From Candidatus Binataceae bacterium (GTDB taxonomy: Bacteria > Desulfobacterota > Binatia > Binatales > Binataceae), in the NCBI GenBank assembly GCA_035524375.1, contig DATKOZ010000047.1, forward strand, positions 113,347-177,346: a stretch of DNA of 64,000 bases, given 5' to 3'. Shown piece by piece: positions 8,694-50,698 of this stretch; position 1 is the first letter of the stretch; each line of letters starts with the position of its first letter. A program made the position numbers and the translations under genes. The notes under the pieces are model-generated. The model was not told the origin of the DNA. It made no database searches and saw nothing but the letters and a program-made list of their open reading frames with translations.

Positions 8694-9524
8694 GTGAATC
8701 CAACCGGCAGCGATCCGCACCCACCCAGCCTATCGCAGGTTGAAACGGGCGATTTTTTCTTTGCCGGTCAGGGCGTGAGCGTGCTGCTCATCCACGGCCT
8801 TACCGGGACTCCATACGAAATGCGCTACCTTGGCGAGCGACTGGCCGCGCGCGGCCTGCGCGTTCGCGGCATCAAGGTGGCCGGTCATGCCGGAGAGCCC
8901 TGGGAACTGGGTTTGACCAGCTACGATAATTGGTATGAGAGCGCGGTGAGAGGATTCGAGGAATTGCGCGCATACGGCGATCCGATCGTGGTCGTCGGCC
9001 TGTCGATGGGCGCGCTCCTGGCGGCGCGGCTAGCCGCCGATCAACGCGATTCGGTGGCGGGACTGGTGATGCTTTCGCCGTCATTTTTTCTGCCCACGTC
9101 AACGATGATCGCGGTCAAAATCGCGGCGCTTCTGGGCTCGCTGGCCGAAAAAGTTTATCTGTACAACCCAGCCGGCTCGGACATTCACGACGCCGCCGCA
9201 CGCGAGATTCACCCCAGCGCCCGCCTGATGCCGTTGATGGCGCCGATCCGGCTGCTAGAACTGTCTGCGATTGTGAAGCCGCGGCTGGCGCAAATCACGC
9301 AGCCAGCACTCGTCATACATGCGATACACGATCACACGTGCCCGATTCGCAAAAACGTTGATTTCGTGATGAAGCATCTGGGCAGCACGGAGAAGCGCGC
9401 AATTGAGCTTGAGGACAGCTACCACGTAATCACGGTGGACAGTGAAAAGGATCGCGTCGCAAACGAGGTAATCGAATTCGTACTGCGCTTCAGAGTCGCT
9501 CCGCAAAAGCGCGCCACCGGATAG
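8694..9524 (+). CDS. Alpha/beta-hydrolase fold carboxylesterase/lipase
   Basis: LLIHGLTGTPYEM...VVGLSMGALLA (GxSxG nucleophile elbow) with later HD/H motifs. GTG start. Confidence 0.7.
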   Translation: MNPTGSDPHPPSLSQVETGDFFFAGQGVSVLLIHGLTGTPYEMRYLGERLAARGLRVRGIKVAGHAGEPWELGLTSYDNWYESAVRGFEELRAYGDPIVVVGLSMGALLAARLAADQRDSVAGLVMLSPSFFLPTSTMIAVKIAALLGSLAEKVYLYNPAGSDIHDAAAREIHPSARLMPLMAPIRLLELSAIVKPRLAQITQPALVIHAIHDHTCPIRKNVDFVMKHLGSTEKRAIELEDSYHVITVDSEKDRVANEVIEFVLRFRVAPQKRATG

Positions 9525-12704: not shown

Positions 12705-12726
12705 GACCCGCATTGACGCCTTGGAT

Positions 12727-12802
12727 GGGGCAGTAGCTCAGTTGGGAGAGCACCACGTTCGCAACGTGGGGGTCGAGGGTTCAAATCCCTTCTGCTCCAC
12801 CA
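12727..12802 (+). tRNA. tRNA-Ala (anticodon CGC)
   Basis: Folded by hand: acceptor GGGGCAG/CTGCTCC with the G3:U70 Ala identity pair, D-stem GCTC/GAGC, anticodon stem CCACG/CGTGG, loop TTCGCAA (anticodon CGC), T-arm GAGGG-TTCAAAT-CCCTT, and 3' ACCA. Confidence 0.9.
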
Positions 12803-12837
12803 AACCCAAATCCAAGAGGGGCAAAGGGCTGCGCGAT

Positions 12838-14166
12838 TTGATCGGCGGCGCTACGGCGGTCAGCCTGGCGGGAGTGGTAGCCTCCGCGGCCACACCGCTG
12901 GTCAGCGTATCGCCGAATGCAGTAAATTTTGGCTCATCGACGGAGGGATCTCCGGCTCCGACTCAGAGCATTACGATTACGAATAATTCAGGTGGTACTA
13001 TGAATATATCCAAGATGACATTTGCGGGTGCGCTTGGTTTTGCGATCGCTTCTTCAACCTGCGGAACACCGATTGCCGACGCAGCGTCGTGCGTGGTCGG
13101 GCTCTCGTTCACGCCGCAGTCGATTTCCGCTTCCGGCACCACCATCAATGGCACGCTGACAATTGCCGACGATGTCGTTAGTAGCCCACAAAAGTTTGTT
13201 AATTTGATCGGGACAGGGACCGCGCCGGTATCGAACGCTATCGCCTCGTATGCCCCGACGCCGGTTACATTCGCGGCCGCGATGGGATACTCAGCACAAC
13301 AGAATCTCACCGTTACAAATACAAGCAGCAACCCATTGTATATGTCGAGCCTCACGCTGTCCGACCCGTCCGATTTCGGGATCGTGAACAACGGATGCCC
13401 GGTGACACCGAACAGCCTAGCGGCAAGTGGCAGTTGCACGATCGCGCTCGATTTCGCACCGCAGTCGAATGAGACGGTCGCGGGTAGCCTGATGATCGCC
13501 GACAATACCAGTTCCAGCCCGGAGACTGTCGCCCTGTCGGGCGCGACGCTTACCTGTCCGATCGGCCAACCCAAGGGTCCTACGCCTCCAATTGTGACTC
13601 CGAGGTTATTCTTCTCTGGTGGGGACACGCAACTTACTGTGACCTCGGTGGTGCCACCCGACCCCAATCTCATAGCGAGTAACGTGACACTTCTGCAGGT
13701 CGATTCGAACGGGAACAATCCGGTAGTGCTGGGGCAGATGTACGACGACGGGACGCATGGCGACGCAGTTGCGGGCGACGGCCAGTACACCGCACAGCCC
13801 ACCGTCAATATTTCTTCGGCTGGGAGGATATATCTCGCGGTGCGCACAAATTATTCGGGACCTCCGGGATGCCGGCAGTCGAATAACAACGAGCGCCCGA
13901 TTGACGTTACTCCGCCACAATCGCAATTCAATCGTGCCCAGTTCGACGCGGAAAACAATGCCCTAACAGCAGGGGAAAAATTCCTTCAAGATGACATCGC
14001 AGGCGGAAAAAGCACCGCGCAAGCGGCACAGGATTTGGTGAATTACATGAAGGCGAATTTTCCCGGAGTCGTTTCTGACGCGGCAGTTGCTGGGACCTTA
14101 AACGATCCCACCGGCGTCTCGGTAACATTCACCAGTGGACGGACGGGAGGCTTTCTTCTCGATTAG
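12838..14166 (+). CDS. Secreted protein with tandem Ig-like ASH/'choice-of-anchor D'-type repeats (start uncertain: TTG 12838)
   Basis: Two repeats of the pattern VNFGSS...TQSITITNNSGG...ISK..F.....F.I.SSTCG.......C.VGLSFTPQS...G.LTIADD..SSPQ.V.L.GTG. The track ORF start (12721) reads through the tRNA and is spurious. TTG at 12838 is in frame, follows AAGGG, and begins a hydrophobic leader. Confidence 0.5.
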   Translation: MIGGATAVSLAGVVASAATPLVSVSPNAVNFGSSTEGSPAPTQSITITNNSGGTMNISKMTFAGALGFAIASSTCGTPIADAASCVVGLSFTPQSISASGTTINGTLTIADDVVSSPQKFVNLIGTGTAPVSNAIASYAPTPVTFAAAMGYSAQQNLTVTNTSSNPLYMSSLTLSDPSDFGIVNNGCPVTPNSLAASGSCTIALDFAPQSNETVAGSLMIADNTSSSPETVALSGATLTCPIGQPKGPTPPIVTPRLFFSGGDTQLTVTSVVPPDPNLIASNVTLLQVDSNGNNPVVLGQMYDDGTHGDAVAGDGQYTAQPTVNISSAGRIYLAVRTNYSGPPGCRQSNNNERPIDVTPPQSQFNRAQFDAENNALTAGEKFLQDDIAGGKSTAQAAQDLVNYMKANFPGVVSDAAVAGTLNDPTGVSVTFTSGRTGGFLLD

Positions 14167-14248
14167 GCACCTGTGGAATATCGCTTCTGTGGTAGGCTCG
14201 CATTGTCTCAACGGGATTGTCAGCCGCGCAAATTCTGAGGAAAACGAT

Positions 14249-15475
14249 ATGAATGTTACAAAGGAGAAAATTGCCGCTTTTGTAAGCCTGATCGTAGTAG
14301 CTATCGTTCCATCATCTATATTCGCACAGGCGGTTACTACTTATACCACAAATTCCAAGAGTATCGTCTTAATGCCATACGTCGATGATTTCGGAATGTA
14401 CGATGCGGGCGGAAATCTGATTAATGACCTTCCAAAGGCGTGCGGCACCTCAGATCCCTTTCCAGTTGTCTACGCAAATGTAGAAGCCTTCAGAGGGATG
14501 GGCAACGATTACGGCGTGATAGGCATATCATCTCATGGATGGGTAAGGCCAGAGACCGGTCAGGTTGAAATTATGACCCGCGAACCAGTCCCACCGCTGG
14601 GCGCGCCTATGGACCAGAAAGATATTAATGATGTCCTCGATAAATACCTTGGTTCTCTTGAGCGTCCTCCAGAAGATAAGGACACTACCCCTTATTTCGC
14701 GATTACGCCGGCGTTTGTCTCTCATTACGCGTCGCCCTATGCGGTTAAGGTAGGTCCTAACAGTTACGGCTACGAACGCCTTAACTATGTGGCCGCATGT
14801 GAGTCCGATGCGAACCCGACGATGGCCGCAGCATTTGTCGGAGACGAAAGCATGGGCGCTTATTTCGGGTACACAGAGAAGGCTAAGGCTTGGCAGGAGG
14901 ATACAACCGCCTTTGACCTTTTTGGAGTCCTAACCAATTTCAAATTGACTGACGATCAGCGAACGACTTCGAAGGCATACGCTCAGGCTGGAACGGACGG
15001 CGGCTTTTCGTTGGATTCAGTTAGCGACCAGAACTTGGCGATCGGAGGCCCGATCGTGAACGGCGGGTTCGAGGACACGGACACCAACGGCAGCCACCTC
15101 GTCGGGTGGACACGGCACTTCGAGCCAAATGCGGGAGCGATGAAGGACGGCCACTTTTGTGGCGATGGTGATACGGTCTGTACGCCGGCAGCCGGCGACG
15201 AGGCCTCGAAGGCCACTCGAGATGAGGCAAAGACTGGAAAATATTCCGCAGAGCTAGGACGGTGGGAAAATTCAAAAGGGCCGCCCGGTACTGATATTTG
15301 CACCGACTCGGTCGATAAGCAGGAGTCGGCTGGAGATGACCAAATATATCAGGATGTTACATTAGGAAAACGCACAGCGAATGGTGGCCCCAAATCGTTC
15401 ACGCTTACTTTCGATTACATTCGTTCTCCACCCCAAAGTTTGACGCTTAGTCCATTGCTCGAGTTGGAATTGTAG
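14249..15475 (+). CDS. Secreted hypothetical protein (409 aa); possible clan-CD (caspase/gingipain-like) His...Cys arrangement
   Basis: ATG at 14249 follows GAGG. Signal peptide MNVTKEKIAAFVSLIVVAIVPSSIFAQA. Motifs VIGISSHGW and LNYVAACESD each follow a hydrophobic strand. GC content by eye is about 45-50%. Confidence 0.5.
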   Translation: MNVTKEKIAAFVSLIVVAIVPSSIFAQAVTTYTTNSKSIVLMPYVDDFGMYDAGGNLINDLPKACGTSDPFPVVYANVEAFRGMGNDYGVIGISSHGWVRPETGQVEIMTREPVPPLGAPMDQKDINDVLDKYLGSLERPPEDKDTTPYFAITPAFVSHYASPYAVKVGPNSYGYERLNYVAACESDANPTMAAAFVGDESMGAYFGYTEKAKAWQEDTTAFDLFGVLTNFKLTDDQRTTSKAYAQAGTDGGFSLDSVSDQNLAIGGPIVNGGFEDTDTNGSHLVGWTRHFEPNAGAMKDGHFCGDGDTVCTPAAGDEASKATRDEAKTGKYSAELGRWENSKGPPGTDICTDSVDKQESAGDDQIYQDVTLGKRTANGGPKSFTLTFDYIRSPPQSLTLSPLLELEL

Positions 15476-15633
15476 AACGAATCCATACGATTGCCCCTCC
15501 TTTAGGCAGCTGTATTCGTGCATGTGTAGTAGCGGCTTAGCTGGGTATTTTATCGGTCGCGGCTCACGTTTCCTTCCTTAGCACATCCGATCCACCACGT
15601 CATTGTTGCAGCTTTCCTAACACGTCCGCTGGT

Positions 15634-15954
15634 TCAAAATTCCCAGGGCAGGTCACGGCGGTTATCCTTGGCTTCGCGGATTTTGGCTTGGGCGTTTCGC
15701 AATTGGGCATCGAGCGGTTCGGTGTCCATCCGCGCAACAATCTGGCCCGCATCGACGGTGTCGCCTTCGTGGGCAAGGATCTCCGCGATTCGGCCCTGAT
15801 ATTTTGTCGCGATATCCACCTGCTTGGCTTCCAGCTGGCCGTTAGCGCCGGCGAAACCGGGAGGCAGCGCGGGCTTGTTCAGGATAAACCACGCAATCGC
15901 TCCACCGCCAACTACGACGATTATTAGCCCTAGGTAAACAAATTTCTTCGACAT
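15634..15954 (-). pseudogene. Truncated N-terminal fragment (106 aa) of an HlyD-family membrane-fusion protein
   Basis: MSKKFVYLGLIIVVVGGGAIAWFIL... (TM), then QLEAKQVDIATKYQGRIAEILAHEGDTVDAGQIVARMDTEPLDAQLRNAQAKIREAK (biotinyl/lipoyl-like hairpin and start of the coiled coil), then a stop. Full-length HlyD proteins are 350-450 aa. Confidence 0.5.
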
Positions 15955-16234
15955 TGGCTTACCCTCGGAGCTATCTTGCGCCTATATTTGGACACGGTGC
16001 AATCATGGCTGTCCCTATTCGAAATTCCAAAAAGCGCGGAAAGCCAAAGGCTCTCTCGTGTCTCTCAAGTCTCGGGGAAGGCTAGCCTTATCTAAAACAG
16101 CGTTCTAGTAGCGTTCCGGCATTCGAGCGCGCTGTCAACCAATCGGGCGTCAACCGCCGCTGATCAACTCGCGTTATAGAGAGCACCTCGCATCAGACTG
16201 TGTCCTCCACCAAAACCAAACCGCACGGCGCGAA

Positions 16235-16261
16235 GGGAAATCGGCACATGGCCGATTTCCC
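16235..16261. promoter_or_regulatory. Perfect palindrome GGGAAATCGGC-acatg-GCCGATTTCCC (half-site recurs at 16575-16586)
   Basis: Seen directly. GCCGGATTTCCC appears again 110 nt upstream of the OMF gene. Confidence 0.3.
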
Positions 16262-16332
16262 GCGCGGGGCGCGTTTCGGCTCTTAGTCAACCCCAATGCA
16301 ACCGAATCGGCCCGATGCCAGCCTGCAAGCGG

Positions 16333-16455
16333 GTTGTGGTCCGCAAAAACGCTTCGCATCCGGTTGAAACCAAATAATTCTTGGGGATCTTGTCAAAATC
16401 CCCAAGAACTATGGAACGTTTAAGCCCATGCAAATTATTTTTGCGGACCACAACC
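16333..16455. repeat. 18-bp perfect inverted repeat GGTTGTGGTCCGCAAAAA...TTTTTGCGGACCACAACC flanking an internal 11-bp-arm palindrome (16378-16408 TTCTTGGGGAT-N9-ATCCCCAAGAA)
   Basis: Seen directly. A nested hairpin architecture of about 120 nt (MITE-like or structured RNA/regulatory site) in the leader of the efflux operon. Confidence 0.35.
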
Positions 16456-16689
16456 GTTCAGCATCTTTTACCGGACACCCAGGATAGCCCTCGTGACGCT
16501 TGGCCGCCACAAGAATATTTTTCGGAGCACTGCGGGAACACGAATGAGCGTTGAGAAGTAAAATCGAGATGTGCCGGATTTCCCTGCGGTTTCGGAAATT
16601 TGATATGGAGAAGATGCTAAATTTCAAGAGCACCGATGCGATTCGGGACGAAACATGGGATGTTCTGCCGCCCCCTGCGGATAATTTGA

Positions 16690-18273
16690 ATGCATTTTCA
16701 CCGCATACTTGAAAGTGTCGTGCTGACGACGGCTTTGGTAACGAGTGGCTGCCTGATCGGACCCAACTTCAAGCGGTCCGCAGCGCCGGTTGCCGCCAAA
16801 TGGTCGGAAACCGGCAGCCAGGGAGTGGATTCCGAACGTCGCGAGTATCGGGATTGGTGGACGTCGTTTAACGATCCGGTGCTGACGCATTTAACTCAGA
16901 TCGCCTACCTGCAGAATCTGACTTTATTGGCTGCCGGTGTCAGGGTCCTTGAGGCGAGGGCACAGCTTGGAGTTGCAATTGGCGAGTTCTACCCGCAACA
17001 ACAAACCGTAGGTGCATCTCTCAGCTACAATCGGATCCCGGATTCGTTGCCGTACAATATTATCAACAACACTTACTGGGCCGATCAATTCGGGGCGCAA
17101 GCGGCTTGGGAACTCGATGTGTGGGGTAAAATCCGCCGTGGCATCGAGTCCGCGGATGAATCATTTTTAGCTTCGGTCGCCGATTATGACGACGTACTCG
17201 TCACTATGACTGGTGATGTGGCAAGTACGTACGTGCAAATTCGCACTCTTCAGGACCAGATTGCCATCGCCAATCAGAATGTTGACCGCCAAAAGATCGC
17301 ATGCCAAATCGCCGAGGCAAAATTTCATGGCGGCACCGCGAGCAAGCGCGATGTATATCAGGCCGAGAATGTTCTGGGTTCCACCGAAGCTGCAATTCCT
17401 GCCCTCAATATTCAGCTGGCAGAAGCGAAGAACTCGCTGTCAGTGTTGCTCGGGGTGCCTCCCGGAATGCTCGATAAGTTACTGGCGGGGTCCAAGGGCA
17501 TCCCGACTGCGCCGGAGCAAATTGCCGCCGGCATTCCGTCAGATTTGCTCGTCCGGCGTCCCGATATCCGTCGCGCGGAACTGCAGGCGGCTGCACAATG
17601 CGCCCAGATCGGCTTCACCAAGGCGGACTTGTTGCCGGCCTTCAACCTGATCGGGAGCGTGGGAACCCTTTCCGGCACTGTAGGTACGTCGACGCTTGCC
17701 ACCGCCTTTTCGGCCAGCGCTCTGGTTTACAACGTCGGCCCATCGCTGCAGTGGAACATTCTGAATTATGGTCAGATAACCAATAACGTGCGCGTTCAGG
17801 ATGCGAAGTTCCAAGAGTTGCAGATTCAGTATCAGAATACCGTGCTCAAGGCGCAGCAGGAGGTCGAAAATGGCCTGGTTGTCTTTGTCGAGTCGCGCAA
17901 TCAGGCCAAATTTTTGACGGAGAGCGTCACAGCCGCAGAGGGTGCGCTCAGCATAGCAATGCTTCAATATCAGCAGGGTATTCTGGACTTCACCACCGTT
18001 CTGACCGCTGAACAGAATCTGTATCAGGCGCAAAACAGCCTGGCCATTGCGCAGGGAAATGTGCCGCAGGGGCTGATCGCAACATACCGGGCGTTGGGGG
18101 GAGGATGGCAGATTCGTATGGGCCATGATTTTGTTCCGCAAGAAACGCGTGACGAGATGTCCGATCGAACCAATTGGGGAACATTGCTGACGCCGAGCCT
18201 GATGAAGCCCAAAGCGCCGGGACTCCCCGGTCCAAAGGATTCATCGCCGGCGCCGGGATTGCCGGAATGGTGA
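16690..18273 (+). CDS. RND efflux outer-membrane factor lipoprotein (NodT/TolC family)
   Basis: Lipobox LVTSGC. Two OEP repeats, with conserved Arg/Asp-rich helices (RRPDIRRAELQAAAQ...). Confidence 0.85.
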   Translation: MHFHRILESVVLTTALVTSGCLIGPNFKRSAAPVAAKWSETGSQGVDSERREYRDWWTSFNDPVLTHLTQIAYLQNLTLLAAGVRVLEARAQLGVAIGEFYPQQQTVGASLSYNRIPDSLPYNIINNTYWADQFGAQAAWELDVWGKIRRGIESADESFLASVADYDDVLVTMTGDVASTYVQIRTLQDQIAIANQNVDRQKIACQIAEAKFHGGTASKRDVYQAENVLGSTEAAIPALNIQLAEAKNSLSVLLGVPPGMLDKLLAGSKGIPTAPEQIAAGIPSDLLVRRPDIRRAELQAAAQCAQIGFTKADLLPAFNLIGSVGTLSGTVGTSTLATAFSASALVYNVGPSLQWNILNYGQITNNVRVQDAKFQELQIQYQNTVLKAQQEVENGLVVFVESRNQAKFLTESVTAAEGALSIAMLQYQQGILDFTTVLTAEQNLYQAQNSLAIAQGNVPQGLIATYRALGGGWQIRMGHDFVPQETRDEMSDRTNWGTLLTPSLMKPKAPGLPGPKDSSPAPGLPEW

Positions 18274-19478
18274 GACGGGAAATGCACGCCGGATATCATT
18301 TTTCTTTCGCAAAAGCATTTAGCCGCATTCTTTTAATCCTGATCGCGGCCGAAGCGCTTGGAACAATCACCGGATGCCACGGCGGTGATGCCACGACCGA
18401 GATTCCTCCTCCGATCGTGACTGTGGCCCACCCCGTCACCCGCTCAGTCAACGACTATTTGGAATTTACCGGCAATCTCGCTTCGATCAATTCCGTTACG
18501 CTGGTCGCCCGCGTTGAAGGTTTCCTCGAGCAGATTCATTTTCAGGATGGAGCGCGGGTAAAAAAAGGCGACCTGCTATTCACGATTCAGCAAGATCAGT
18601 ACATAGCGCAGCTACAACAGGCGAAGGCCCAGGTTGAGGCTCAGAAGGCCGCACTTTGGCACGCGAAGACGGAGTTCGAGCGCTACACGAGACTGCTGAA
18701 GAAGGATGCGGCATCGCAGGTCGACGTTGACCACTGGCACTTTGAGCGGGACAGCTCCGCAGCCGCGCTAATTTCAGCGCAGGCACAGGTCGAAATTGCC
18801 AAACTCAACCTCGACTATACGGAGGTAAGGGCGCCCTTCGACGGCAGGATGGGGCGCCATCTGGTTGACCCGGGCAATTTGGTCGGAGCAATGGGGCAAC
18901 AGACGAAACTGGCCGAAATTGAACAACTCGACCCAATATACGCGTACGTTACGATCAATGAGCGCGAACTCCTGCGCATCATGAAACGAAGGAAGGACCA
19001 GGCGCGAGAAAAAGCTATCGAAGGGACAATTCCGGTGTTTTACGGCCTTGCGAGCGAAGATGGATTTCCACATGAGGGTCGTCTCGACTTCGCATCGCTG
19101 AACGTTACACCGACCACCGGAACTCTGCAGTTGCGCGCCATCTTTCCCAATCACGATCTGATCGTGATGCCGGGTCTTTTCGTGCGCGTGCGCATCCCCG
19201 TCCCGGAAGCTCGCGACGCCTTGCTCGTGCCAGGCGACGCAATCAGCTTCGATCAACAGGGCGAATACGTATTGGTCGCGAATGACAAAAATATCGTGGA
19301 GCGGCGCAGCGTCAAGACCGGGTTTCAAGTCGGAGATATGATGGTCGTCGACCAAGGGCTTAAGCCAGGCGACCGCGTGATCGTGGAAGGTCTGTTGCAG
19401 GCAATCATTGGCCGCCAAGTCAACCCACAGGCAAAAGACTCCGTTTCCCCCGACAAGACGCAAACCGCGGGCGGGTGA
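18267..19478 (+). CDS. RND efflux periplasmic adaptor (membrane-fusion protein, HlyD/AcrA family)
   Basis: ATG overlaps the OMF stop (ATGGTGA). Lipobox ITGC. Biotinyl-lipoyl hairpin (VEGFLEQIHFQDGARVKKGDLLFTIQ), coiled coil, beta-barrel and MP domains. Confidence 0.85.
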   Translation: MVRREMHAGYHFSFAKAFSRILLILIAAEALGTITGCHGGDATTEIPPPIVTVAHPVTRSVNDYLEFTGNLASINSVTLVARVEGFLEQIHFQDGARVKKGDLLFTIQQDQYIAQLQQAKAQVEAQKAALWHAKTEFERYTRLLKKDAASQVDVDHWHFERDSSAAALISAQAQVEIAKLNLDYTEVRAPFDGRMGRHLVDPGNLVGAMGQQTKLAEIEQLDPIYAYVTINERELLRIMKRRKDQAREKAIEGTIPVFYGLASEDGFPHEGRLDFASLNVTPTTGTLQLRAIFPNHDLIVMPGLFVRVRIPVPEARDALLVPGDAISFDQQGEYVLVANDKNIVERRSVKTGFQVGDMMVVDQGLKPGDRVIVEGLLQAIIGRQVNPQAKDSVSPDKTQTAGG

Positions 19479-19505
19479 AGCTGCTGGACCGGGAGAACGA
19501 CTAAC

Positions 19506-22500
19506 GTGTCTCGATTTTTCATCGAACGCCCGATCCTGTCGAATGTAATCGCGATAATCATCGTATTGCTCGGGCTGGTTTGCCTGCTGAACCTGCCTGT
19601 GGCGCAGTATCCTGAAATCGTCCCGCCAACGATACAGGTCCGGACAAACTATCCGGGCGCAAGTGCGGAGATCGTTGCTACGACCGTTGGCATACCGATC
19701 GAACAGGGAGTCAACGGTGTCGAGAACTCCCTCTATATGCAATCGACCAGCGGTAGCGACGGCACCTACACGCTCACCGTGACGTTTAGTGTTGGGACGG
19801 ACCTCGATGCCGCGATTGCACTGGTACAAAACGCCGTCAACGGCGCATTGTCCCAGTTGCCGGACGCGGTCCAAACTCAGGGCGTAACGGTCCAGAAGGT
19901 CAGCACCAATATCCTGCTCATTGGCAGCCTATATTCTGACCACAACCAATTCGACGAAACCTTCCTCAGCAACTATGCGATCATCAATCTGCAGAATCCG
20001 ATCGCCCGCTTGCCGGGAGTCGGACAAGTGCAGGTACTCGGCGCCGGACCGTACAGCATGCGCATTTGGCTCGACCCGATAAAGCTGAAAGCGTTCGGGC
20101 TGACGGTGCTCGACGTTCAACAGGCAATTCAGAATCAGAATGTTCAGGTGGCCGCGGGCCAGCTTGGAGGACCGCCAGTCGCGTCCGATCAGGTATTTCA
20201 GTTGACAGTGAATACGCTTGGACGCCTGACTGACGTATCGCAGTTCGAAAATATTATCCTGAAATCTCAGCCCCCCACCGATCGCACCAGCCAGGACACT
20301 CAGTCGGAAACCTACGCTCAAGCCGCCGCAATTGTCCGGATCAAAGATGTCGCCCGGGTTCAACTCAGCCAGGAGACATTTTCAAATTTTTCCGGCTTAA
20401 GCGGCCGGAAGGCCGCGCAACTCAATGTGTATACGCTGCCGGGTGCAAATGCCTTGAAGGTGTCGCAGGAGGTCTCGGAGCTGATGGCCAAGATGAGCCA
20501 AAAGTTCCCCGTCGGACTCAAATACGCCTCCCTTCTCGACACCTCCTTGTTTATTCGAGATTCGATCCACGGCGTGTATTCCGCGCTGATCGAGGCCGGA
20601 ATTCTGGTGTTGATAGTAATAATGTTGTTCCTGCAGAATTTTCGAGCAACGCTGGTTCCGGCGACTACCGTTCCCGTTACAATCATCGGCGCTTTCGCCG
20701 CGATGGCCCTGCTTGGCTTTACGGTCAATCTGATGACGCTCTTTGCCTTGATTCTGGCGATAGGGATCGTCGTGGATGACGCAATCGTCATTGTCGAAAA
20801 CGCCTCGCGCTACATCGAGAACGGCCTCTCTCCAAAGGATGCCGCCATCAAGGCGATGGAGGAGCTGACCGGGCCGATCCTCGGTATCACATTGGTGCTG
20901 ATATCGGTGTTTCTTCCGGCGTCGTTCCTTCCCGGCATTACCGGTCAGATGTTTCGGCAGTTCGCGCTCGTGATTGCGTCAACCGCGCTGATTAGTGCCC
21001 TAAATGCGCTCACTCTCAAGCCGACGCAATGCGCACTTTACTTGAAACCGCGTCCGAAGGACCAGCCAGTCAACCGGTTTTACCAAGAGTTCAACCGAAT
21101 TTACGGCATTATTGAGGATCGCTACGTCAGCTTGGTTGATTGGATGGCGCATCGACCCGGGCGGATGGTCGGGGTCTTCTTTTCAATCGTTGCTGTAGCT
21201 GGGCTCATGTTTGCATTACACCCGACCTCATTTCTTCCGCTGGAGGATCAAGGTTATTGCATTGTGTCCGCCAGGCTGCCTCCCGGCGCCGCGCAGCCGC
21301 GCGTGCAGGAAGTAGCAAGCGCCATCGACTCGGTACTTAAGGAAACTCCCGGAATCAAAGGTTGGGTGACCAGTGGCGGCGTTTCGGCGCTCGATTCGGC
21401 AAATTTATCCAACGCTGTGACTGTCTATGCCATGTACGAGGATTGGGGCAACCGCCAGGCCGGTCTTGATCAGGACCATATCGTTGCCGACCTTCGCCGG
21501 CGGTTGCAGTCAATCCGAAAGGCTGAATTCGACGTGCTTATTCCGCCGCCGATTCCGGGACTTGGCCAGGCTGGCGGATTCCAGATGATGATTGAGGATC
21601 GGACCGGAGTCGGCCTGGGCGAACTGCAGAAGGGAGTTGAGGAACTGATCCGAAAGGTCCGCGGAAACCCCGGCTTGCGTGGCGTTGCAACCACCTTTAG
21701 TGCAAATAGCCCTCAGCTTGAGCTGGACATCAATCGAACAATGGTCGAATCGCTCGGGGTAACGATTAACGATGTATTTCAGACCGTGCAGACCTATCTT
21801 GGATCTAGCTACATCAACCTTTTCAATAAATTCAATCAGAGTTTTCAGGTGCGCGTGCAGGCCGATGCCGATTATCGCAAGCAACTGGCAGACATCGGAA
21901 ATCTCTATGTCGCGAATCGGACCGGTCAGATGGTACCGCTGGGCGCCGTCCTGAGCATTCATCGAGTGCTCGGCTCGGAGCTTTTGACTCGATACAACAT
22001 GTATCCGGCCGCGATTGTAGTCGGTAATCCCGCTCCGGGTTACAGTTCGGGGCAAGCGCTCGAAACAATGGAGCGCGCCGCCAATACCGATTTACCGCTG
22101 GGAATGGGTTTCGATTGGACGGGACTGTCCTACCAGCAAAAGCTGATCGGAAATCAATCCTATTTCATATTCGCGCTTTCGATAACTTTGGTTTTCCTGG
22201 TCCTTGCAGCGCAATACGAGAGCTGGACGGCGCCTGCCGCGGTGGTGCTGACGGTGCCGATGGCGCTGGTCGGTGTCATTATCGCGCTCATCCTTCGCGG
22301 ATTTGCCACCGACCTTTATACGCAAATCGGACTGGTATTAATGATTGCGATGGCTGCAAAGAACGCGATCCTGGTGGTTGAATTTGCACGCGAGTTGCAA
22401 GCGGAAGGCATGACCGCGACTGAAGCGGCGGTCGAGGCGACGCGCCGGAGATTTCGCCCGATCGTGATGACGTCGATCGCATTCATTTTGGGCGTGGTTC

Positions 22501-22712
22501 CGCTGTTGACCGCAACCGGCGCAGGAGCGGCCAGTCAGCAGGCGCTGGGCACGGTAGTTTTCGGCGGCATGCTCGCCACGACGCTTATCGCCATTCCGTT
22601 TGTCCCCGTGTTCTATATCGTCATGGAAGGTTTCTCCGAGCGGCGAATGCGGCGAACTGGACGAACCCCGGCGCACGGCGAAGCCGTAGCAGTGAAAACG
22701 GACGGGGGATGA
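19506..22712 (+). CDS. RND efflux permease (HAE1/AcrB-MdtB type), copy 1
   Basis: 1068 aa and 12 TM. N-terminus MSRFFIERPILSNVIAIIIVLLG, plus conserved TM4 region (ALILAIGIVVDDAIVIVEN) and TM10 region. Confidence 0.95.
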   Translation: MSRFFIERPILSNVIAIIIVLLGLVCLLNLPVAQYPEIVPPTIQVRTNYPGASAEIVATTVGIPIEQGVNGVENSLYMQSTSGSDGTYTLTVTFSVGTDLDAAIALVQNAVNGALSQLPDAVQTQGVTVQKVSTNILLIGSLYSDHNQFDETFLSNYAIINLQNPIARLPGVGQVQVLGAGPYSMRIWLDPIKLKAFGLTVLDVQQAIQNQNVQVAAGQLGGPPVASDQVFQLTVNTLGRLTDVSQFENIILKSQPPTDRTSQDTQSETYAQAAAIVRIKDVARVQLSQETFSNFSGLSGRKAAQLNVYTLPGANALKVSQEVSELMAKMSQKFPVGLKYASLLDTSLFIRDSIHGVYSALIEAGILVLIVIMLFLQNFRATLVPATTVPVTIIGAFAAMALLGFTVNLMTLFALILAIGIVVDDAIVIVENASRYIENGLSPKDAAIKAMEELTGPILGITLVLISVFLPASFLPGITGQMFRQFALVIASTALISALNALTLKPTQCALYLKPRPKDQPVNRFYQEFNRIYGIIEDRYVSLVDWMAHRPGRMVGVFFSIVAVAGLMFALHPTSFLPLEDQGYCIVSARLPPGAAQPRVQEVASAIDSVLKETPGIKGWVTSGGVSALDSANLSNAVTVYAMYEDWGNRQAGLDQDHIVADLRRRLQSIRKAEFDVLIPPPIPGLGQAGGFQMMIEDRTGVGLGELQKGVEELIRKVRGNPGLRGVATTFSANSPQLELDINRTMVESLGVTINDVFQTVQTYLGSSYINLFNKFNQSFQVRVQADADYRKQLADIGNLYVANRTGQMVPLGAVLSIHRVLGSELLTRYNMYPAAIVVGNPAPGYSSGQALETMERAANTDLPLGMGFDWTGLSYQQKLIGNQSYFIFALSITLVFLVLAAQYESWTAPAAVVLTVPMALVGVIIALILRGFATDLYTQIGLVLMIAMAAKNAILVVEFARELQAEGMTATEAAVEATRRRFRPIVMTSIAFILGVVPLLTATGAGAASQQALGTVVFGGMLATTLIAIPFVPVFYIVMEGFSERRMRRTGRTPAHGEAVAVKTDGG

Positions 22713-22728
22713 TCGGACCGGTTCCCAC

Positions 22729-25700
22729 ATGTCGAAATTCTTCATTGAGCATCCGATCTTTGCCAACGTCATAGCGATAATTACAGTCCTACTTGGCGCG
22801 GTATGCCTCTATAGTCTTCCGGTCGCTCAATATCCTCAAATCGTCCCGCCGACAATTCAGGTAAGCACCAATTATCCGGGCGCGAGCGCCGAAGTGGTAG
22901 CTAATACTGTCGGAATACCAATCGAGCAGGCGGTCAACGGAGTCGAGAATTCCATTTATATGCTGTCCACCAGCGGCAGCGACGGCAGCTACACGCTAAC
23001 CATTACGTTTCAGATTGGCACCGACCTCACTACGTCGCTTGCTCTGGTACAGAACGCCGCCAACGCTGCGTTGCCGCAACTGCCAACCCAAGTGCGAAAA
23101 CAAGGAGTGAATGTCCGAAAGGTCAGTACCAATATTCTGCTAATTGAGAGCCTATACTCCGACGACAATCGCTTCGACGAAACCTTCCTCAGCAATTATG
23201 CGATCATCAATCTGCAGAATCCTATCGCCCGTCTGCCGGGGGTCGGACAGGTAAACGTTCTTGGAGCGGGCCCGTATGCGATGCGCGTGTGGCTCGCTCC
23301 CGACAAGCTCAAGGCTTACGGAATCACTGTCAACGAAGTTCAAAGGGCAATTGAATCCCAAAACGTCCAGGTGGCGGCGGGTCAAATTGGCGGTCCACCA
23401 ACCCCCTCGGATCAAATCTATCAATTCACCGTAAATACCGTGGGGCGGCTGTCGGATGTTAGCCAGTTCGAGAATATCATAATCAAGAGCGCGCCACCGG
23501 CGCCCGAAGGGAACCAATCGCACCCAAACGGCCCAGCCGCTGCGCTGGTACGCATCAAGGATGTTGGCAGTGTTCAACTGAGCCAGCAGGTTTACAGCAT
23601 TTTTTCCGGATTGAGCGGCAGGCCAACGTCGCATCTCGCGATTTATGCGCTGCCGGGCGCCAACGCGCTTCAGGTTGCACAGGAAACCCGCCAGCTGATG
23701 GAACAGATGGCGAAAACGTTCCCCCAAGGGCTCAAGTATGAGTCCTTGTACGACACAACCAAGTTTATCAACCAATCAATCAACGGCGTGTATTCGGCTC
23801 TGATCGAGGCTGGCGTATTAGTGCTAATCGTCATCGTTCTGTTTCTGCAAAATTTCCGCGCTACTTTGGTACCGGCAACCACCGTACCGGTTACGATTAT
23901 CGGCGCGTTTGCCGCGATGGCGATGCTGGGTTTTACCGTCAACCTGATGACATTGTTTGCGCTGATTCTGGCGATCGGAATCGTCGTCGACGATGCGATC
24001 GTGATTGTAGAGAGTGCGTCCCATTACATTGAGACAGGTCTGTCGCCCAAGGACGCCGCAATCAAGGCGATGGAGGAGCTGACCGGACCGGTTTTGGGCA
24101 TTACGCTGGTGCTCACGGCAGTTTTTTTGCCGGCGTCATTCCTGCCCGGCATTACCGGCCAAATGTTCCGGCAATTCGCACTGGTGATCGCCGCGACGGC
24201 GATAATCAGCGCACTTAATGCTTTGACACTCAAGCCAACGCAATGCGCACTTTACCTTAAGGCCATTCCAAAAGATCGACAGGTGAATTGGTTTTTTCGG
24301 GGATTTAATCGCGGATATAAGGCGATCGAGGATCGGTACATCAGCTTGATCGAGCGAATGGTGCATCATCCCAAGGCGATGGTTTGCGCGTTCGTGGTAA
24401 TCGTTGGTTCGGCAGGGTGGTTCTTTTCAGTTTATCCAACGACTTTGATGCCGCTAGAGGATCAGGATTATTGCATTGTGTCTGCGGAGCTTCCGCCGGG
24501 AGCGTCGCAGCCTCGGGCGCGCGCGGTAGCAGCCAATATCGACAAGGTGCTGAAGGGAATTCCGGGTGTGAAGGGGTGGGTCACTATCGGCGGGTATTCC
24601 GCGATCGACTCTGCGAAGTTGTCAAACGTCATCACAACCTTCGTGGTTTTCGACGATTGGGACAAGCGTCCGCCGGGGTTCACGCAGCTTGGTTTGATTA
24701 TGGAGCTCTATCAAAAGTTTCGTTATGTACCCGAAGCGAAATTTGCGGTGCTTCCTCCTTCGCCAATTCCCGGCCTGGGAGTTGCATTCGGATTCCAGAT
24801 GATGGTGGAAGACAGGGCGAATTCAGGGCTTCAGGAACTGGAAAAAGTGGAGCTCGGAATTTTGCGTGAAGCCTACAATCGGCCCGGCTTCTTGCGGCTC
24901 AGCTTCTCGACATTCAGCGCCAGCAGCCCGCAGGTCTTTCTTGATATCGATCGCACAATGGCAAAATCGCTTGGGGTGACAATCAACGATGTCTTCAAAG
25001 CGCTGCAAACATATTTGGGATCGAGCTACGTCAACCTGTTCAACAAATATAACCAGAGCTTTCAGGTTCGGCTTCAAGCCCAAGCCGACTATCGCCGCCA
25101 GACAGCCGACATCGCAACCCTGTACGTCACCAATCAATTCGGGCAGATGGTGCCGCTCGGTTCCATCCTTCATGAGCGCCGAACGCTCGGATCGGAACTG
25201 GTAACCAGGTACAACCTTTATCCCGCTGCGATGATTATCGGCATTCCGAATTTTAGGTACAGCACTGGACAAGCGATCCGCATCATGAAGCAGATTGGCG
25301 CGAACACCATGCCGCCGGGCATGGATTACGAATGGACTGGGCTTTCATATCAGGAACAGCTAATCGGTAATCAGGGAATTTTGATCTTCGCCCTGTCCAT
25401 TACATTGGTCTTCCTGGTGCTTGCCGCGCAATATGAGAGTTGGACAGATCCGGCGGCGGTCGTCCTGACGGTACCGATGGCATTGGTTGGCGTCATTCTG
25501 GCATTGTTCCTCCGGCGATTCCCGGTGAGTCTATACACTCAGATCGGGCTAGTATTGATGATCGCACTCGCTGGGAAAAATGCGATCCTAATCGTCGAAT
25601 TCGCGCGTGAACTCAAAGCGCAAGGCATGAGCGCGACCGAGGCAGCGTTGGAAGCGACGCGAAGGCGCTTCCGTCCGATCGTGATGACGTCAATTGCCTT

Positions 25701-25881
25701 TATTCTGAGCGTCGTACCGCTTGCAACCGCCGATGGTGCCGGCGCGGCGAGCCAACAAGCGATCGGCACGGTAGTACTGGGTGGAATGCTTGCGTCGTCC
25801 CTGCTGGCGATACCGTTCGTACCGGTATTTTATATTGTGATGCAGAATGTCAAGAACGCCTCAACCCGCGGACGTCGATGA
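22729..25881 (+). CDS. RND efflux permease (HAE1 type), copy 2, tandem paralog of copy 1
   Basis: 1050 aa, colinear with copy 1 and with long identical or near-identical stretches (e.g. FDETFLSNYAIINLQNPIARLPGVGQV, ALILAIGIVVDDAIVIV). Separated from copy 1 by 16 nt. Confidence 0.95.
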   Translation: MSKFFIEHPIFANVIAIITVLLGAVCLYSLPVAQYPQIVPPTIQVSTNYPGASAEVVANTVGIPIEQAVNGVENSIYMLSTSGSDGSYTLTITFQIGTDLTTSLALVQNAANAALPQLPTQVRKQGVNVRKVSTNILLIESLYSDDNRFDETFLSNYAIINLQNPIARLPGVGQVNVLGAGPYAMRVWLAPDKLKAYGITVNEVQRAIESQNVQVAAGQIGGPPTPSDQIYQFTVNTVGRLSDVSQFENIIIKSAPPAPEGNQSHPNGPAAALVRIKDVGSVQLSQQVYSIFSGLSGRPTSHLAIYALPGANALQVAQETRQLMEQMAKTFPQGLKYESLYDTTKFINQSINGVYSALIEAGVLVLIVIVLFLQNFRATLVPATTVPVTIIGAFAAMAMLGFTVNLMTLFALILAIGIVVDDAIVIVESASHYIETGLSPKDAAIKAMEELTGPVLGITLVLTAVFLPASFLPGITGQMFRQFALVIAATAIISALNALTLKPTQCALYLKAIPKDRQVNWFFRGFNRGYKAIEDRYISLIERMVHHPKAMVCAFVVIVGSAGWFFSVYPTTLMPLEDQDYCIVSAELPPGASQPRARAVAANIDKVLKGIPGVKGWVTIGGYSAIDSAKLSNVITTFVVFDDWDKRPPGFTQLGLIMELYQKFRYVPEAKFAVLPPSPIPGLGVAFGFQMMVEDRANSGLQELEKVELGILREAYNRPGFLRLSFSTFSASSPQVFLDIDRTMAKSLGVTINDVFKALQTYLGSSYVNLFNKYNQSFQVRLQAQADYRRQTADIATLYVTNQFGQMVPLGSILHERRTLGSELVTRYNLYPAAMIIGIPNFRYSTGQAIRIMKQIGANTMPPGMDYEWTGLSYQEQLIGNQGILIFALSITLVFLVLAAQYESWTDPAAVVLTVPMALVGVILALFLRRFPVSLYTQIGLVLMIALAGKNAILIVEFARELKAQGMSATEAALEATRRRFRPIVMTSIAFILSVVPLATADGAGAASQQAIGTVVLGGMLASSLLAIPFVPVFYIVMQNVKNASTRGRR

Positions 25882-50014: not shown

Positions 50015-50698
50015 ATGAAAGCCTGCGTCCTGATGATCACGATGAACGAGGAGGCGGCGATTGCGCCCCAAATCGAGGCGATCAGGAAATCCGCCGGTGC
50101 GGATATCCCGATTGTGATCGTCGATTCCTCGGCCGATCGCACTCCGGAAATTGCCACCAGCCTCGGTGCAAAGGTGATCCGGCAATTTCCACCTCTTGGG
50201 TACGGCAAGGCGATGCTGCTCGGACAGCGCGAGGCCGCCAAAATCGCCGACGCTATCGTGACACTGGACTGCGACATGACCTACCCCGCCGAGCGCATCC
50301 CGGAGTTCATCGGACTAATCGAACAGGGCTACGATTGCGTGTCCGGAAGCAGAATCGCCGCGGCGGGAGAGGCGATGCCGATGCTCAACCAGCTCGGTAA
50401 CCGCGCCTTCGCGATGCTCGTGCGGGTTCTTTTCGGGTTCCCGATCACCGATTTGACGACCGGGATGCGCGCACTGCGGTCGTCGGCGGTCACGAGCATC
50501 GAATGGGTTCCACTGCGTTTTTTTCCAGCCGAGCAGGGGATTCGGTTTCATCAGGCGGGATGCCGCGTGATCGAGAAACCGATCGAGTACCGCATCCGGG
50601 TCGGCGACGTGAAGATGCAGAAGGTACGCGACACAATCCGGCTCCTGAAGGCCATCTATTATTGCTGGCGCGTGCCAGTCCGCCGGGTAGCGGCCTGA
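50015..50698 (+). CDS. GT2-family glycosyltransferase (polyprenol-phosphate sugar synthase-like)
   Basis: VLMITMNEE...IVIVDSSADRT...TLDCDMTYP...GSR (DxD-like DCD) is the GT-A fold pattern. Confidence 0.75.
   Translation: MKACVLMITMNEEAAIAPQIEAIRKSAGADIPIVIVDSSADRTPEIATSLGAKVIRQFPPLGYGKAMLLGQREAAKIADAIVTLDCDMTYPAERIPEFIGLIEQGYDCVSGSRIAAAGEAMPMLNQLGNRAFAMLVRVLFGFPITDLTTGMRALRSSAVTSIEWVPLRFFPAEQGIRFHQAGCRVIEKPIEYRIRVGDVKMQKVRDTIRLLKAIYYCWRVPVRRVAA

Follow-up and report, generated by a model that had tools for sequence, protein, structure and literature searches.

A probable miniature derivative of an rve-type insertion sequence in the palindrome-dense spacer before a Binataceae RND efflux operon

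What is the palindrome-dense 735-bp spacer that precedes an efflux operon in this Binataceae genome: a regulatory leader, a set of operators, or a mobile insert? The spacer (15955-16689) lies within a 64-kb stretch of a metagenome-assembled contig, referred to here as the window. It is bounded on the right by a plus-strand operon of OMF (NodT), adaptor, RND, and RND genes (16690-25881), whose OMF gene (16690-18273) specifies a protein found in identical form on ENA contig ERZ27256510:k141_2501535 and on a Logan contig. The two RND transporter genes are full-length and follow the adaptor gene in tandem (19506-22712 and 22729-25881), in what we take to be an MdtBC-like layout (19506-25881). This tandem arrangement is kept, at least for the first RND gene, in the loci of all relatives. 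On the left, the spacer ends at a minus-strand ORF of 106 amino acids (15634-15954), an N-terminal fragment of an HlyD/RND-type periplasmic adaptor that matches NF002939 only at positions 4-96 of 332 (the N-terminal third) and TIGR01730 only at positions 18-78 of 322. No frame continuation was seen downstream of this ORF for the rest of the gene, and a six-frame reading of 15441-16700 for pseudogenes revealed nothing besides the fragment itself, whose presence at the left edge suggests that the region was rearranged. The end of a convergent gene lies 158 bp from the truncated ORF.

The spacer carries little that resembles a gene. Its longest ORF (74 amino acids, minus strand) runs into an 18-bp repeat described below, and the public gene calls for this contig are empty over the 735 bp, in agreement with the original prediction that no convincing ORF is present. 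The same prediction named the region a leader, a label that is unproven. No convincing promoter was located: a sigma-70 promoter scan returned one weak plus-strand site at 15948-15977 and none nearer the operon. Neither similarity to the spacer nor comparable palindromes could be found in the spacers of six orthologous operon loci (OMF 68-73% identical), which range from 0 to 700 bp and follow different upstream genes. Outside the 124-bp element discussed next, the 735 bp is best described as a lineage-specific, non-conserved patchwork. Inverted repeats are concentrated here. Perfect ones with arms of 10 bp or more and loops no longer than 120 nt number 24 in the window, versus about 10 in Markov shuffles, and three of the 24, including the sole one longer than 11 bp, fall within 230 bp in this spacer. 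A chance origin of the spacer's inverted repeats is excluded.

The 124-bp element (16332-16455) sits 235 bp upstream of the operon and begins and ends with terminal inverted repeats that match at 18 of 18 positions. The left repeat, GGTTGTGGTCCGCAAAAA (16332-16349, plus strand), is followed by a C, and the right repeat is the same 18-mer on the minus strand (16438-16455; TTTTTGCGGACCACAACC on the plus strand) with a T on its inward side. When up to three mismatches are allowed, the 18-mer occurs in the 64 kb only as these two arms, compared to an expectation of 0.03. The original prediction had recognized this pair, with the left arm placed 1 nt off, and had described a second hairpin nested inside it. 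That inner structure, a perfect 11-bp hairpin (TTCTTGGGGAT-N9-ATCCCCAAGAA, 16378-16408) that extends to 19 nt at 89% (16374-16412), is present where it was predicted, but it is not a separate hairpin. Both structures share a symmetry center at 16393, and the 62-nt halves are about 74% alike throughout; 16332-16455 is therefore one long imperfect palindrome rather than two independent nested hairpins. A very stable structure of about 120 nt had also been expected, and a 151-nt stretch that includes the element has predicted folding energies of −61.7 kcal/mol (z = −7.5) on the plus strand and −72.1 kcal/mol (z = −8.8) on the minus strand. ORFs that cross the element (29-74 amino acids) are reading-frame artefacts only.

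Clues to the identity of the element come from its ends. An exact-match scan for GGTTGTGGTCCGCAAAAA across 185,579 species genomes (one per species, GTDB collection) yielded 38 loci, with several genomes matched two or three times, where about 17 loci would be expected by chance according to our own estimate from database size. In at least 14 of the 38 loci, mostly from Acidobacteriota, the 18-mer is the terminus of a repeated element. Four of these are full-length insertion sequence (IS) units of 1.08-1.41 kb (L040 2809-4068, L026 5623-6828, L038 1207-2620, and L014 5543-6622) that carry the 18-mer at one end and an imperfect inverted copy at the other, and each encodes one ORF with HTH_32 and rve_3 domains, as in a DDE transposase. 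Similarity among copies within a genome begins exactly at GGTTGTGG, and the inverted repeat in the window stops exactly at this IS-family terminus. The inner bases of the window termini likewise follow the pattern of the family: the left one resembles the left, transposase-upstream ends of full-length copies (AAAAAC), and the right one resembles most full-length right ends (AAAAAT).

This correspondence was quantified with an end matrix, which was built from the 16 partner arms only, since the query had fixed one arm per locus and its inclusion would have been circular. The two window termini score 23.7 and 22.8 bits, compared with 13.0 bits for the runner-up site in the 64 kb and a best score of 17.1 bits in 20 shuffled windows. 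The conserved end core of the family reads TGTG(G/C)TCCGCAAAAA. A third, degenerate transposon end was considered at 16511-16534 and rejected, as its score of 23 falls short of significance against a 95th percentile of 24 in shuffles.

The same family also generates short units. Non-coding units with the same ends are present in Marinacidobacterales as three copies of 62-64 bp and three of 99-100 bp. In an acidobacterial MAG, a 324-bp unit (L036 7418-7741) corresponds to the opening 94 bp of the 1414-bp IS of L038 joined to its final 231 bp, with 87.5% and 92.7% identity in the two parts, and can be read as a clean internal-deletion derivative. Comparison of these loci thus shows the same ends bounding deletion derivatives of 62-324 bp in other genomes. 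On this evidence, 16332-16455 is probably a miniature non-coding derivative (MITE) of an rve-transposase IS family. The MITE-like insert offered among the original suggestions is therefore supported for this part of the spacer, whose termini are the terminal repeats of an IS family that spawns short derivatives elsewhere. Similarity between the element and all IS copies compared covers 18-27 nt at the ends only, and because the likeness is confined to the ends, the element would be classed as a type II MITE in the usage of PMC10969869.

Some marks of a MITE are missing. Multiple copies had been proposed as the sign of a MITE, and this sign did not appear: the element occurs once in about 71 kb of this genome, comprising the 64-kb window and 7.4 kb of the same contig to the right. 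Neither the window nor the adjoining 7.4 kb holds a transposase gene of this kind, and no IS-family ends were found in the loci of Binataceae relatives plus further stretches of this genome (158 kb summed, 15 overlapping loci). A sibling with the same interior was not found either, with zero matches to the inner-hairpin pattern in JGI metagenome contigs. The flanks of the element (...CAAGCG | GTTCAG...; CTGCAAGCG on the left and GTTCAGCATC on the right) contain no direct repeat at any offset of 0-3 nt that could represent a target-site duplication. Among 11 related elements, none shows such a duplication, save one possible 3-bp case at the L038 copy. Because the full-length copies show none either, its absence here is uninformative rather than contradictory, and the feature may not apply to this IS family. 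An empty site for comparison is lacking, because even the closest relatives reach just 73% identity in the OMF protein.

Several routes could have brought the element to its present position. A DDE transposase recognizes the terminal repeats through its HTH domain and carries out their cutting and joining with its rve core. The element might have transposed into the site with transposase supplied in trans, and with both ends kept, it would be movable in trans. Alternatively, it could be the remnant of a full IS copy that suffered an internal deletion in situ, or its DNA could have arrived together with its surroundings. Whichever route applies, the element would now be a passenger in front of the efflux operon, at a distance of 235 bp.

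The parent family is abundant and poorly classified. With NCBIfam models, its transposases reach 99.9 and 99.3 bits for IS481, where the cut-off is 224, and 89 and 93 bits for IS3, where it is 160. As both cut-offs are missed, the parent is an rve-type DDE family near IS481 and IS3 that is assignable to neither. At E ≤ 1e-20, more than 6,000 transposase clusters were recovered; most lie on contigs 1.3-1.7 kb long, a short length that is expected of repeats. Source databases name the homologues 'transposase InsO family' or 'integrase core domain-containing protein', and the latter is the only name used in the PLSDB gene table (RefSeq plasmid records). A Paraburkholderia plasmid copy with 50% amino-acid identity retains the left end TGTCCTCCGCAAAAACTCGA.

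The sole IS copy labelled Binataceae (L039) must be treated with care. It terminates a stretch of 5,062 bp that is 99.9% identical to one in L024, which is labelled Bryobacteraceae and thus belongs to another phylum, and both loci are MAG bins from one study. This sharing looks like a binning conflict at a repeat, and the host of that IS copy is uncertain. Five further loci matched by the 18-mer scan are from DPANN archaea (L003, L011, L016, L022, and L032; Woese-, Nano-, and Pacearchaeota), where the 18-mer lies inside a shared motif that, judged by eye, is presumably part of a tRNA gene. These five were not adjacent to any IS-like repeat and were taken as unrelated to the IS family.

Stable predicted folds upstream of an operon naturally raise the question of regulatory RNA. 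An sRNA or attenuator had been suggested, and a structured RNA of this kind, or one resembling a riboswitch, might regulate the pump from the 124-nt hairpin or from the whole 735 bp; a larger portion of the spacer (16190-16689) is also predicted to fold strongly (−184 kcal/mol, z = −4.9). Such stability stems from transposon ends, which are inverted repeats by construction. No Rfam match was obtained at E ≤ 10 that could be credited: across 15400-17200 the best matches, to a miRNA model and to Dictyoglomi-1, had E = 3-4 and fell far short of their gathering scores, and at gathering scores the whole window returned two tRNAs only. The lack of an Rfam match and of spacer conservation argues against a conserved sRNA, attenuator, or leader RNA. 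With no homologous sequence or comparable structure before the six orthologous operons, no covariation is demonstrable, and neither hairpin is followed by a U-tract on the plus strand. We therefore regard a structured regulatory RNA as extremely improbable.

The hairpins might instead act on transcription directly. On the plus (operon) strand, no intrinsic terminator site was flagged, with hairpin tails reading CTATGGAA, CGTTCAGC, and GCGCGGGG; because no U-tract follows either hairpin, termination of plus-strand transcription by these structures appears unlikely. The central hairpin (16378-16408) is terminator-like on the minus strand only. Three minus-strand sites could in principle be Rho-independent terminators of leftward transcription, either as relics of lost genes or as insulators before the truncated adaptor ORF: 16412 to 16374 followed by TTATTTGGTTT, 16233 to 16221 followed by TTTGGTTTTG, and 16055 to 16039 followed by TTTTT. 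The last of these (16039-16055) is a consensus match only (z = −2.5) located about 85 nt upstream of the truncated ORF. A count of three is within the shuffle expectation of 2.1 ± 1.6. As the original prediction had remarked, there is no minus-strand gene to the right that such terminators could serve: the OMF gene is on the plus strand, and the 74-amino-acid minus-strand ORF runs into the transposon end. This explanation also fails to account for outer arms that are identical to IS termini, and it is very unlikely to be correct. An integron attC site was also considered and dismissed, as inspection revealed no fit of the ends to RYYYAAC / GTTRRRY and the surroundings are not those of an integron.

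A second feature of the spacer requires separate treatment. To the left of the element lies a perfect 27-bp palindrome, GGGAAATCGGC-ACATG-GCCGATTTCCC (GGGAAATCGGCACATGGCCGATTTCCC; 16235-16261), exactly where it was predicted, which forms the core of an imperfect palindrome at about 16218-16279 and has a predicted hairpin of −28.1 kcal/mol (z = −4.3). The half-site GCCGGATTTCCC does recur as claimed, at 16573-16584 rather than 16575-16586, where it is part of a degenerate copy, some 30-40 nt long, of the whole palindrome unit (16555-16592; 98-135 bp upstream of the OMF start codon). Local alignment of the two copies scores 31 in inverted and 28 in direct orientation, compared to 15.2 ± 2.2 (maximum 23) for 300 shuffles. 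The degenerate copy is poorly palindromic (7 of 11 arm positions matching, counted by hand), and alone it folds no better than shuffles. A third copy is absent from the 64-kb window, the relatives' loci, and JGI metagenome contigs, where the pattern shared by the copies had zero matches. With two copies and none elsewhere in the sequences searched, the palindrome is not a dispersed repeat. Together with its degenerate copy, it is a feature separate from the element.

One explanation is that the two copies are an operator pair for a dimeric regulator that is encoded elsewhere and controls the efflux operon, which would be in keeping with the multiple operators envisaged by the original prediction. 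A perfect inverted repeat of 11-N5-11, a significantly similar second copy close to the OMF start, and the confinement of the motif to this spacer among the sequences searched are all consistent with this proposal. It is also compatible with a MITE at 16332-16455, whose insertion would have moved the sites from about 199 bp to 323 bp apart. The two related copies are real, but none of the ORFs annotated in the roughly 10 kb flanking the spacer on each side has a regulator domain. Also weighing against the proposal are the poor symmetry of the second copy and the absence of the motif, or of any comparable palindrome, upstream of the six orthologous operons. The only other similar palindrome in the window, at 50084, was considered as a possible regulon member and taken as a chance occurrence, since it falls inside a GT2 glycosyltransferase gene. 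An operator pair is thus a tentative idea that is somewhat unlikely to hold.

The palindrome might alternatively owe its position to events at a nearby tRNA gene. A tRNA-Ala(CGC) gene is located after galU (12727-12802), and an imperfect direct repeat of its 3′ end and downstream DNA (12795-12828) is found on the plus strand at 16205-16237. The repeat starts in the last 8 nt of the tRNA, and its copy lies 3.4 kb away, directly to the left of the palindrome; 27 of 33 positions are identical, and the score of 28 was reached in none of 500 shuffles. It could be an att-like scar, a suggestive sign only. Between the repeats are an ASH-domain gene, a 408-amino-acid gene without a Pfam match, the truncated adaptor fragment, and a low-GC patch (14100-14500; 42-49% GC). 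A mechanically derived ORF of 481 amino acids (12721-14166) overlaps the tRNA, and the public call for it starts at 13000 and spans 388 amino acids, so the longer ORF is an artefact. In relatives (L052-L057; galU 83-84% identical), the radical-SAM, DksA, galU, and tRNA-Ala genes are kept in all, and the genes just after the tRNA vary (sulfatase, cupin, SnoaL, and a 503-amino-acid unknown). By this variability, tRNA-Ala is a hot spot for insertions in Binataceae, and the segment 12803-16204 could be an island in decay that lacks an integrase.

If so, the left palindrome could be the native terminator of tRNA-Ala, displaced when the 3.4-kb segment 12803-16204 was inserted in the 3′ end of the tRNA such that the original 3′ fragment and its downstream hairpin were left at 16205-16279. 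The start of the direct repeat within the tRNA, the gene fragment and low-GC patch in the segment, and the arrangement in relatives, one of which (L056/L057) has a second tRNA-Ala(CGC) copy at 8698-8770 flanking an extra gene, are all in line with such an event. The repeat, however, is short, of low complexity, and found post hoc, and no integrase is encoded in 12803-16204. Moreover, the spacer is unlike the DNA downstream of tRNA-Ala in five relatives, and the hairpin has no adjacent U-tract. A displaced terminator is accordingly judged unlikely.

For the 124-bp element, identification as a probable IS derivative has mostly practical consequences. In soil bacteria, an rve-type IS group that is abundant but poorly classified proves to have a conserved end and to spawn miniature derivatives repeatedly, one of which would lie before an efflux operon in a Binataceae genome. 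Knowledge of these ends can be used for repeat masking, and they serve as a caution against taking transposon ends for regulatory RNA. The element is an ordinary kind of feature that matters little beyond annotation. Its effect on the operon would depend on where the promoter is located. With a promoter to the right, the element would just shift upstream DNA 124 bp further off. With a promoter to the left, a hairpin of about −62 kcal/mol that lacks a U-tract would be part of the mRNA.

How does this locus compare with known systems? The 27-bp palindrome resembles REP, BIME, and REPIN sequences in being short, GC-rich, intergenic, and present twice, but those families comprise tens to hundreds of copies, in contrast to two in 64 kb and none elsewhere in the sequences searched. 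The ends of IS481 and IS3 elements begin with TG or TGT in ISfinder descriptions. The parent IS is similar to both groups in that it is 1.1-1.4 kb long, carries one ORF for a protein with an HTH and an rve core, and is bounded by inverted repeats with TGTG...CACA ends, and it differs from them in a transposase that scores under both curated cut-offs and in showing no visible target-site duplication. It also lacks the frameshifted two-ORF layout of IS3. Prokaryotic type II MITEs are defined as being like an IS only in their terminal inverted repeats (PMC10969869). The element fits this group in its length (124 bp, within the 50-500 bp range), its perfect terminal repeats in common with autonomous IS copies, its lack of coding capacity, its long hairpin fold, and its intergenic position. 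It departs from the group in lacking a target-site duplication, in occurring as one copy in about 71 kb, and in having no partner IS there.

In setting, the locus recalls Neisseria, where a Correia element (CREE) precedes the RND operon mtrCDE (Rouquette-Loughlin et al. 2004, via PMC10969869; PMC2649163). In both cases, a miniature inverted-repeat element is found upstream of an RND efflux operon, and its transcript would form a long hairpin. The two elements are unrelated in sequence. Correia elements occur many times per genome, and both their binding by IHF and their cleavage by RNase III are demonstrated (PMC10969869, PMC2649163). By analogy, a hairpin in the efflux operon mRNA might undergo processing or impede the progress of ribosomes or RNA polymerase, and processing of a 5′ UTR in the Correia manner would need a promoter to the left of 16332, where none was located. 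A more speculative proposal, which we strongly doubt, is that the co-opted relic and the two flanking palindrome copies form a regulatory module for the RND pump, either through a 5′-UTR hairpin that RNase III cuts or by acting as a spacer to define the distance over which the two operators loop. Should the element simply be shown to alter pump expression, it would add one more case to the known theme of MITEs upstream of RND operons. If the full module were real, it would be a Binatota counterpart of the Correia/mtrCDE case that arose from an unrelated IS family.
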